Below, piece by piece: positions 86 to 3,000 of a stretch of DNA of 64,000 nucleotides (within the stretch, counting starts at the first letter, position 1; each line of letters starts with the position of its first letter). Position numbers: made by a program. The stretch lies in assembly GCF_058153355.1 (NCBI RefSeq), contig NZ_CM177019.1; one strand, 5' to 3'.

Positions 86-3000
86 CATGCCTGCAATCTG
101 GGAAACCGGGGTAGAAAAAAACTTGCAGGCCATAACAGTATCTACCAAAAGTAGCGAACCGTAGGTCGGATAAGGCGCTCGCGCCGCATCCGACAAATGT
201 GTTCAGCGACAGATTAGCTGGCTTGCTTTTTCATCATACTGATAATAAATAACAGTGCCGCACATAGCACTACCGACGGACCCGCCGGCGTATCGTAAAA
301 TGCGGAAAAGGTTAAACCGCCAGTTACTGCCACCATTCCCACCAAAACAGCGACACCGGCCATCTGTTCCGGCGTGCGGGCAAAGCGACGCGCTGTAGCT
401 GCAGGAATAATCAGCAGCGAAGTAATAATCAACGCGCCGACAAATTTCATCGCTACACCAATCGTCAATGCTGTCACCAGCATCAACAACAATTTCACGC
501 GCTGTAATTTCACACCATCAACAAACGCCAGATCCGGGCTAATCGTCATTGACAGCAAATTGCGCCATTGCCAGAACAGAATCGCCACCACGATGACCAC
601 GCCAATCGCAATAGAGATGAGATCTTCTGGCGTCACTGCCAGCAAATCACCGAACAGGTAAGCCATCAAATCAACACGAATGTTAGACATCAGACTAACG
701 ACCACCAGGCCCAGCGACAGGGCACTGTGCGCCATAATCCCTAATAACGTGTCGATCGCCAGCTGTGGGCGCTTCTCCAGCCATACCAGACCGCCCGCCA
801 GCAGCAGCGTAACCGCAATCACCGCATAGAATGGATTAACGTCCAGCAACAAACCAAACGCGACGCCAAGTAACGAGGCATGAGCCAGTGTATCACCGAA
901 ATAAGACATACGACGCCAGACCACAAACGAACCCAGCGGACCCGCGGCACAGGCGAGCATGATCCCGGCTAACCAACCAGGAAATAATAATTCAATCATG
1001 AGCGATCATTTCCCCGACGCAAAACAATTCGTCCCTGTAAATCGTGACGATGATTATGATGATGGCGATAGATACCCAGTTGTTCAGCACCACGAGGACC
1101 AAACATAGAAATAAACTCCGGATGCAGGGAAACAACTTCCGGTGTGCCGGAACAACAAATGTGGTGATTCAGGCAAAGCACTTCATCGGTTTTTGCCATT
1201 ACCAGATGCAGATCGTGAGAGACCATTAAAACGCCACAATCCAGTTCGCGACGCAACTGGTCAATAAGGTCATATAACGCCACCTGACCATTCACATCCA
1301 CGCCCTGAGTGGGTTCATCCAGCACTAATAATTGCGGTCGATTTAACAATGCTCGCGCTAACAATACACGCTGTGTTTCGCCACCCGAGAGCTTTTGCAT
1401 CGGTGCGTTAATCAGATGCCCGGCCTGGACACGTTTCAGTGCAGGCAAAATATCTTCTTTATGTGTGCCAGGGCGTAAGCGTAAAAATCGATTTACGGTC
1501 AGTGGCAATGTGGTGTCGAGATACAGCTTCTGCGGTACGTAGCCGATGCGCAGTTTTCCGTTGCGCTTGATAACCCCTTCATCGGGTGTTACCAGTCCGA
1601 GCACTACCCGTACCAGTGTCGACTTACCTGCGCCATTTGGCCCAAGTAAAGTTAAAATTTTTCCAGGTTTAAGTTCCAGCGACACATCAGAGAGGACGCG
1701 GCGTTGGCCGAAAGAAACCGAGACATTTTCCAGGGAAACCAGACTTGTCATGTTAATTTTAGTCTTGCAGTAGTCATGAAATGTTATAATATCACACTTC
1801 TCATATTCATTACGATGATTGGTCGCATTATGTTACATAAAAAAACGCTTCTTTTCGCAGCATTATCCGCCGCTCTCTGGGGGGGGGCAACACAGGCCGC
1901 AGATGCTGCCGTTGTCGCTTCGCTTAAACCCGTTGGGTTCATCGCTTCTGCCATTGCTGATGGGGTAACAGAAACGGAGGTTTTACTACCTGACGGCGCT
2001 TCAGAACATGATTATTCACTGCGTCCATCAGATGTAAAACGCTTACAGAACGCGGACTTAGTCGTTTGGGTTGGCCCGGAGATGGAAGCGTTCATGCAAA
2101 AACCGGTAAGTAAATTACCTGAAGCGAAACAGGTAACGATTGCGCAGCTAGAGAATGTGAAACCGCTGCTGATGAAAAGTATTCACGGCGATGATGATGA
2201 TCACGACCACGCGGAAAAAAGTGACGAAGATCACCATCACGGCGATTTCAACATGCATCTTTGGCTTTCCCCAGAGATAGCGCGGGCTACAGCGGTTGCA
2301 ATCCATGGAAAATTAGTGGAATTTATGCCGCAAAGTCGAGCCAAACTTGACGCCAACCTGAAGGATTTTGAGGCACAATTAGCCTCAACCGAAAAGCAGG
2401 TTGGTAACGAGCTCGCGCCGCTCAAGGGGAAAGGTTATTTCGTTTTTCACGATGCTTACGGCTATTTCGAAAAACAGTTCGGACTGACACCGCTTGGTCA
2501 TTTTACCGTTAACCCTGAGATTCAACCTGGCGCGCAGAGTTTACATGAAATAAGAACACAGTTGGTTGAGCAAAAAGCAACCTGCGTTTTTGCTGAGCCA
2601 CAGTTCAGGCCAGCGGTCGTTGAGAGCGTCGCTCGAGGGACATCCGTTCGTATGGGAACGTTGGATCCCCTGGGGACGAATATCAAACTGGGTAAAACAA
2701 GCTATTCAGAATTCCTGAATCAATTAGCCAACCAGTATGCGAGCTGCCTGAAAGGAGATTAATGAGGAAGTGATTACGTGCAACAGATAGCCCGCTCTGT
2801 CGCCCTGGCGTTTAATAATTTACCGCGACCACACCGCGTTATGTTGGGGTCGCTCACCGTTCTTACTCTGGCCGTCGCTGTCTGGCGGCCCTATGTTTAT
2901 CACCGCGATGCCACGCCAATTGTCAAAACCATTGAGCTGGAACAGAACGAAATTCGTTCGCTCTTACCTGAAGCCAGTGAGCCGATTGATCAAGCTGCAC

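Follow-up and report, generated by a model that had tools for sequence, protein, structure and literature searches.

The 78-bp region between znuC and znuA in the 64,000-nucleotide stretch of DNA analysed here (the window) almost certainly contains a single Zur operator, located at 1777-1796 (protected span about 1771-1801), that is common to the divergent znuA(-mepM) and znuCB promoters. The sequence-only reading had placed a Zur operator at 1776-1799 (ATGAAATGTTATAATATCACACTT) within the znuA-znuCB divergent promoter, and this assignment is confirmed: every formal Zur-box score that was applied is passed, and the promoter setting is borne out by the flanking genes (ORFs and NCBIfam matches) and their orientation. 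Only the boundaries are refined, into a core box, a consensus alignment and the protected span (Table 1); the interval 1776-1799 covers the 20-bp core completely, the 23-bp consensus alignment at 22 positions and the crystallised 31-bp duplex over 24 bp. The element is already known as the E. coli K-12 PznuABC operator and adds no new biology, so that its description as an expected regulatory feature rather than a novelty was apt. Identity with K-12, motif scores, contact bases, gene order and conservation come from the present analysis; binding, stoichiometry and zinc dependence are taken from the literature; and the exact -10 and -35 elements and start sites are predictions.

Table 1. Coordinates of the operator, the adjacent promoter elements and genes, and other elements of the window
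Feature	Position	Strand	Basis or remarks
Core Zur box TGAAATGTTATAATATCACA	1777-1796		Two overlapping dyads, binding two Zur dimers; exact TGWNAYRWTATAWYRTNWCA match and top matrix score
23-bp consensus alignment	1778-1800		2 mismatches against 22 specified positions
Equivalent of the crystallised znuABC operator duplex, 31 bp	1771-1801		Putative mapping
Extended -10-like TGtTATAAT, znuA(-mepM) promoter	1782-1790	+	Read from sequence; (nearly) invariant in 49 species
Extended -10-like elements, znuCB promoter	1786-1796	-	TGtGATATT (1796 to 1788) or TGaTATTAT (1794 to 1786); conserved
TTGCAG, -35-like hexamer, znuA promoter	1765-1770	+	Conserved TTGCA; putative function
znuC	996-1751	-	251-aa ORF; NCBIfam ZnuC 535.6 bits (cut-off 306)
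znuB	214-999	-	ZnuB ORF downstream of znuC; 4-bp overlap with znuC
znuA	1830-2762	+	310-aa ORF; NCBIfam ZnuA 522.7 bits (cut-off 268)
mepM	2778-4100	+	ORF and NCBIfam match; next after znuA
Regulated unit 1	1830-4140	+	znuA, mepM, terminator-like hairpin with T-run (4116-4140)
Regulated unit 2	60-1751	-	znuC, znuB, terminator-like hairpin (79 to 60)
RalA sRNA	22870-23048		Prophage-like segment
C4/isrK set 1	29244-29432	-	Prophage-like segment
C4/isrK set 2	37408-37609	+	Prophage-like segment; followed by sRNA-Xcc1
sRNA-Xcc1	37747-37830		After the plus-strand C4/isrK set
sok	38531-38704		Prophage-like segment
Four-tRNA cluster Met-Arg-Thr-Gly	40935-41245		Prophage-like segment
Three ORFs after the tRNA cluster	41825-43112		Putative lysis cassette (holin, lysozyme, spanin), from translations only

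The intergenic region (1752-1829) separates two genes that run divergently, and the ORFs and their NCBIfam matches, together with the occurrence in E. coli genomes of the 401 bp around the site, identify the locus as the E. coli znuA/znuCB divergent pair. These 401 bp are present in 5425 of the 5426 complete E. coli genomes, in which the flanking genes are annotated znuC and znuA. The gene for the regulator itself, zur, is absent from the 64-kb window; in K-12, zur maps far from znu, and it is not expected here, and its presence elsewhere in this genome is presumed from the species. The locus appears to form two regulated units, znuA-mepM and znuCB. A terminator-like site was sought in the znuA-mepM gap and none was found there, the one in this unit lying after mepM, and co-transcription of znuA and mepM has been stated previously (PMC7705223).

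Formal scoring matches the site to Zur operators by consensus, by structure-derived motif and by weight matrix alike. The 23-bp gamma-proteobacterial Zur consensus, GAAATGTTATANTATAACATTTC (quoted in PMC4219657 and PMC2706843), aligns with the site with mismatches at 2 of its 22 specified positions, and at a threshold of 3 or fewer mismatches it has no match in 100 dinucleotide-preserving shuffles of the window (0 expected by chance). The two-dimer motif derived from the structure, TGWNAYRWTATAWYRTNWCA, an E. coli pattern that includes the central TATA (PMC4219657), fits the core box with 0 mismatches, the sole exact match in 64 kb. With the same pattern, the three remaining Zur operators of E. 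coli were located in the K-12 genome (zinT, TGTAATGTTATATTGTAACA; ykgM, GGTTATGTTATAACATAACA; and pliG, TGAACTGTTATAATATAACA), and a leave-one-out symmetrised weight matrix was constructed from these three sites alone, with the znu site excluded to avoid circularity. Under this matrix the znu site scores 24.0 bits of a possible 32.1 and ranks first among the approximately 64,000 positions in the window, the runner-up reaching 16.7 bits. For comparison, random 64-kb sequences matched to the window in first-order composition (n = 200) had a maximum score of 11.8 ± 2.3 (mean, SD), with 19.7 as the highest.

The bare skeleton RNNNYRNNRYNNYRNNNY, which comes from the crystal-structure paper (PMC4219657), is satisfied at 1778-1795 but has no discriminating power, matching the window 230 times against 260 ± 17 expected. 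The core box is self-complementary at 14 of its 20 positions and is thus an imperfect palindrome; an inverted-repeat finder reports just a 9-nt palindrome (1781-1792) because the outer arms are imperfect.

Scoring also bears on the alternative that iron-responsive Fur, or some other member of the Fur family, recognises the site instead of Zur. Fur and Zur are paralogous metalloregulators, both of their boxes are AT-rich palindromes, and the Fur box likewise acts in repression by overlapping promoters. However, the 19-bp Fur consensus (GATAATGATAATCATTATC) has mismatches at 8 of 19 positions in its best alignment within 1755-1815, a fit that some 400 sites in the window equal, which is the level expected by chance. 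Moreover, the central TATA read by Tyr45 of Zur is described as specific to Zur and lacking in the Fur box of E. coli (PMC4219657). A Fur box at the znu site is excluded by this chance-level match, and the alternative as a whole has a probability close to nil.

Comparison with characterised Zur boxes shows the whole operator to be, base for base, that of E. coli K-12. Relative to K-12 MG1655, the intergenic region is identical at 77 of 78 bp and the 31-bp operator is identical throughout; the flanking genes and their orientation are also the same, and the flanking coding DNA is 97.1% identical. The lone difference, G1817 (T in K-12), lies in the znuA leader, 16 bp outside the operator, and is the majority E. 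coli allele, 4182 of 5422 genomes having the same 78 bp as the window. The K-12 PznuABC operator is the one represented by the duplex in PDB 4MTD and treated by Patzer & Hantke (2000), Outten et al. (2001) and Gilston et al. (2014).

The K-12 operator has been characterised by DNase I footprinting, by EMSA and by a 2.5 Å co-crystal with two Zur dimers on an operator-derived duplex, whose 31 nucleotides are those protected in footprinting (PMC4219657). In EMSA, Zur binds the znu operator cooperatively, with a Kd-app of 8.2e-18 M^2 and a Hill coefficient of at least 2, and repression in vivo, seen as derepression in a zur deletion of K-12, is 6.6-fold (PMC4219657). In the structure, Arg65 and Tyr45 form hydrogen bonds with G7, A11', A12, A15, A16', G19', A20 and G24', and the two-fold axis of the duplex falls between bases 15 and 16 (PMC4219657). 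All eight contacted purines are present when the 31-mer is aligned with the minus strand of 1771-1801 (position i = 1802-i), and a plus-strand reading of the crystal numbering fails at positions 12 and 19. Numbering on the minus strand, the znuC direction, puts the two-fold axis between 1786 and 1787. From the contact list, rather than from a quoted sequence, we infer that the crystallised duplex corresponds to this span.

Within E. coli, positions 1766-1806 are unchanged in 5125 of the 5426 complete genomes. For comparison among species, a ZnuC scan with one genome per species yielded 80 loci from other Enterobacterales and Orbales genomes, ranging from Escherichia and Citrobacter to Photorhabdus, Morganella, Arsenophonus and Gilliamella. 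In every one of these loci znuA is divergent from znuC, across a spacer of 74-311 bp, and in every one the znu-independent matrix detects a high-scoring box. The box ends 22-56 bp upstream of znuC, with one exception, the locus with the 311-bp spacer, in which it is 198 bp upstream of znuC.

When 49 of the 80 intergenic regions (49 species) are aligned with the window, the fixed positions of the operator become apparent. Positions 1781-1796 are almost invariant (64-100% identity to the window, with 13 of the 16 positions at 92% or above): G1783-A1788, T1790-T1792 and C1795 are the same in all 49 species, A1781 and A1794 are conserved at 98%, and T1782 at 92%. The flanks of the box vary, with most positions conserved at 10-70%. 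A second conserved block, comprising TTGCA at 1765-1769 (90-100%) and A1772 (92%), stands at a fixed spacing from the box across these Enterobacterales and Orbales species.

The operator would overlap core promoter elements of both strands, as judged from base sequence. On the plus strand, TGtTATAAT has the sequence of a perfect extended -10 element; on the minus strand, TGaTATTAT sits two bases along from TGtGATATT, and either register is possible for znuCB. The TTGCAG hexamer, separated by 14 bp from TATAAT or by 16 bp from TAATAT, is a plausible weak -35 element of znuA. A generic sigma-70 scan called neither znu promoter, as its model does not cover extended -10 promoters and the -35 is weak; its lone match near the site falls within znuA, in the wrong orientation. 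The assignment therefore comes from inspection of the sequence for extended -10 elements together with published work: an extended -10 RNA polymerase site is drawn inside the 31-mer (legend to Fig. 1B of PMC4219657), and in both E. coli and Erwinia the Zur box is stated to coincide in part with sigma-70 sites (PMC7705223).

These promoter elements could in principle explain the invariant block by themselves, in which case the AT-rich sequence would consist of two overlapping, divergent extended -10 elements with no dedicated repressor: TGtTATAAT on the plus strand and TGtGATATT on the minus strand jointly span, nearly exactly, positions 1781-1796. That the block is promoter and nothing more is nonetheless extremely improbable, since zinT, ykgM and pliG, none of them divergent, are each preceded by the same 20-bp motif, and the matrix derived from those three sites alone ranks the znu site best in 64 kb. 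In addition, the identical K-12 sequence has been co-crystallised with Zur and shifted in EMSA (PMC4219657). The promoter-element and Zur-operator readings are compatible, as the operator overlaps the promoters by design.

Conservation of the TTGCA block, along with A1772, is most simply explained by a role as the -35 element of znuA. Alternatively, the TTGCA...AAA stretch at 1764-1783 might be a MarA/SoxS/Rob marbox that mediates the reported activation of znuACB by SoxS. The stretch agrees with the marbox AYNGCACNNWNNRYYAAAYN at 10 of 14 specified positions, and SoxS is reported, in a passage of PMC12818246 that cites other work, to raise znuACB expression. But matches with 4 mismatches occur at 555 sites in the window, as expected by chance, and the same 2026 paper describes the effect of SoxS on znuACB as apparently indirect and SoxS as unlikely to bind the promoter (PMC12818246). 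With the -35 role accounting more simply for the conservation, and given the chance-level match and the indirect effect, the marbox was rejected as very unlikely.

The znu operator shares its 20-bp architecture, central TATA and RNNNY dyads with the zinT, ykgM-ykgO (L31p/L36p) and pliG operators, whose sites fit the same IUPAC pattern at 0-1 mismatches. Those three sites serve single promoters, whereas the znu operator serves two divergent promoters. The right half of the znu operator (1789-1796) is ATATCACA, with a C at 1793, and is less symmetric than the ATATAACA of the zinT and ykgM operators. This lower symmetry fits the published rank of znu among the weaker Zur operators: the 6.6-fold repression of znu compares with 984-fold for zinT and 560-fold for L31p, and the affinity of Zur for znu is also far lower (PMC4219657). 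C1793 may relate to this relatively weak published affinity of the E. coli znu operator. Position 1793 is occupied by the palindrome-breaking C in Escherichia, Citrobacter, Enterobacter, Pantoea, Erwinia and Serratia, and by A, which makes a better palindrome, in Pectobacterium, Dickeya, Photorhabdus, Xenorhabdus, Morganella, Edwardsiella, Hafnia and Gilliamella.

The Zur site of Yersinia pestis znuA/znuCB has an orthologous position in a divergent intergenic region, and there too the box overlaps the -10: primer extension and a DNase I footprint place it over the -10 of both promoters (PMC2706843). In the 49-species alignment, the Yersinia loci carry AATGTTATAATATTACGC at the aligned position. 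A further footprint ("site 2"), lacking a Zur box, was reported in the Y. pestis intergenic region, whereas a single site is described in E. coli.

The published two-dimer occlusion model is the best-supported account of how the operator works. With sufficient free zinc in the cytoplasm, Zn-loaded Zur would occupy the pseudo-palindrome as a cooperatively bound dimer of dimers, with the two dimers on opposite DNA faces and each monomer reading one RNNNY element via Arg65 and Tyr45. Because the box holds the extended -10-like elements of both promoters as well as the predicted start sites, bound Zur would exclude RNA polymerase from both divergent promoters at once, turning off synthesis of the ZnuABC zinc importer. 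As zinc falls, Zur would lose its regulatory zinc and leave the box, allowing both operons to be transcribed.

A proposed addition to this model is that the operator contains a partial ZntR recognition sequence, by which apo-ZntR speeds the unbinding of Zur "through DNA" and couples the control of zinc uptake with that of efflux. Enhanced Zur unbinding was reported in 2024, in cells and by single-molecule FRET, with a 31-bp duplex of the znu bidirectional promoter, but the authors of this single study say that ZntR alone does not bind the partial site (PMC11618457). We regard the through-DNA effect as possible though doubtful, and it would supplement, not replace, the Zur model.

A broader proposal, that the intergenic region is more than a Zur on/off switch, is unlikely: it combines a second factor acting at TTGCA or the flanks with selection of C1793 for early derepression. 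The sequence recognised by such a factor may be the TTGCA block (1765-1769, A1772) or the operator flanks, and the second factor could be apo-ZntR, influencing bound Zur "through DNA", or a second Zur-dependent contact resembling "site 2" of Y. pestis. Selection may have favoured the palindrome-breaking C1793 because it lets znu be derepressed before the other Zur targets.

Several other features of the window are recorded here as separate observations. The znu locus (142-3412) is 97.1% identical in DNA sequence to that of K-12; the ZnuC protein is identical, and ZnuA has six substitutions (K-12 to window: G98E, D109N, L165F, T189K, R237S and S297N). Identity of at least 99% over 1600-2000 is found in just 450 of 5425 E. 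coli genomes, indicating that the strain carries a minority znuA allele. The znuA signal-peptide codons include a nine-G run at 1879-1887 (TGG GGG GGG GCA, encoding W-G-G-A), the sole homopolymer of G or C of 8 or more nucleotides in the 64 kb. The corresponding sequence is GGGGAGGTG in K-12 and GGGGGGGTG in the closest complete genome of E. coli; the run was built by synonymous changes, the last of which, T to G at 1886, is the lone difference from the closest genome in 401 bp. The run could be a slippage-prone tract, or it could be a sequencing or assembly error.

The second-best match to the Zur matrix (the runner-up noted above) is an inverted repeat, TGTTAT-N8-ATAACA (TGTTATTTTTTTTCATAACA), at 7877-7896. 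It is intergenic, between a 289-aa ORF (6893-7762, minus strand) and a 491-aa ORF (8100-9575, plus strand), which we take from K-12 gene order to be hexR and zwf. As a Zur site it was rejected, having no central TATA and a score within the range of the random sequences; binding by a different regulator, or chance, is the probable explanation.

A prophage-like segment extends from about 22800 to 43200 and includes several small RNAs, a tRNA cluster and a putative lysis cassette (Table 1). No Shiga-toxin-like ORF was found in the 2 kb directly after the tRNA cluster. Just ahead of the segment, at 21163-21308, are SraC/RyeA and SdsR/RyeB, an overlapping pair of antisense sRNAs (Rfam 172 and 112 bits).

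The value of the result lies in correct annotation only. From raw sequence, the sequence-only reading located a known 20-bp regulatory element with an error of no more than one or two bases. Across Enterobacterales, the phylogenetic footprint shows clearly which operator positions are fixed. The operator sets the zinc threshold at which the high-affinity importer ZnuABC of E. coli is switched on and, through co-transcription, this threshold also governs the peptidoglycan endopeptidase MepM. ZnuABC is important for growth under host-imposed zinc starvation.
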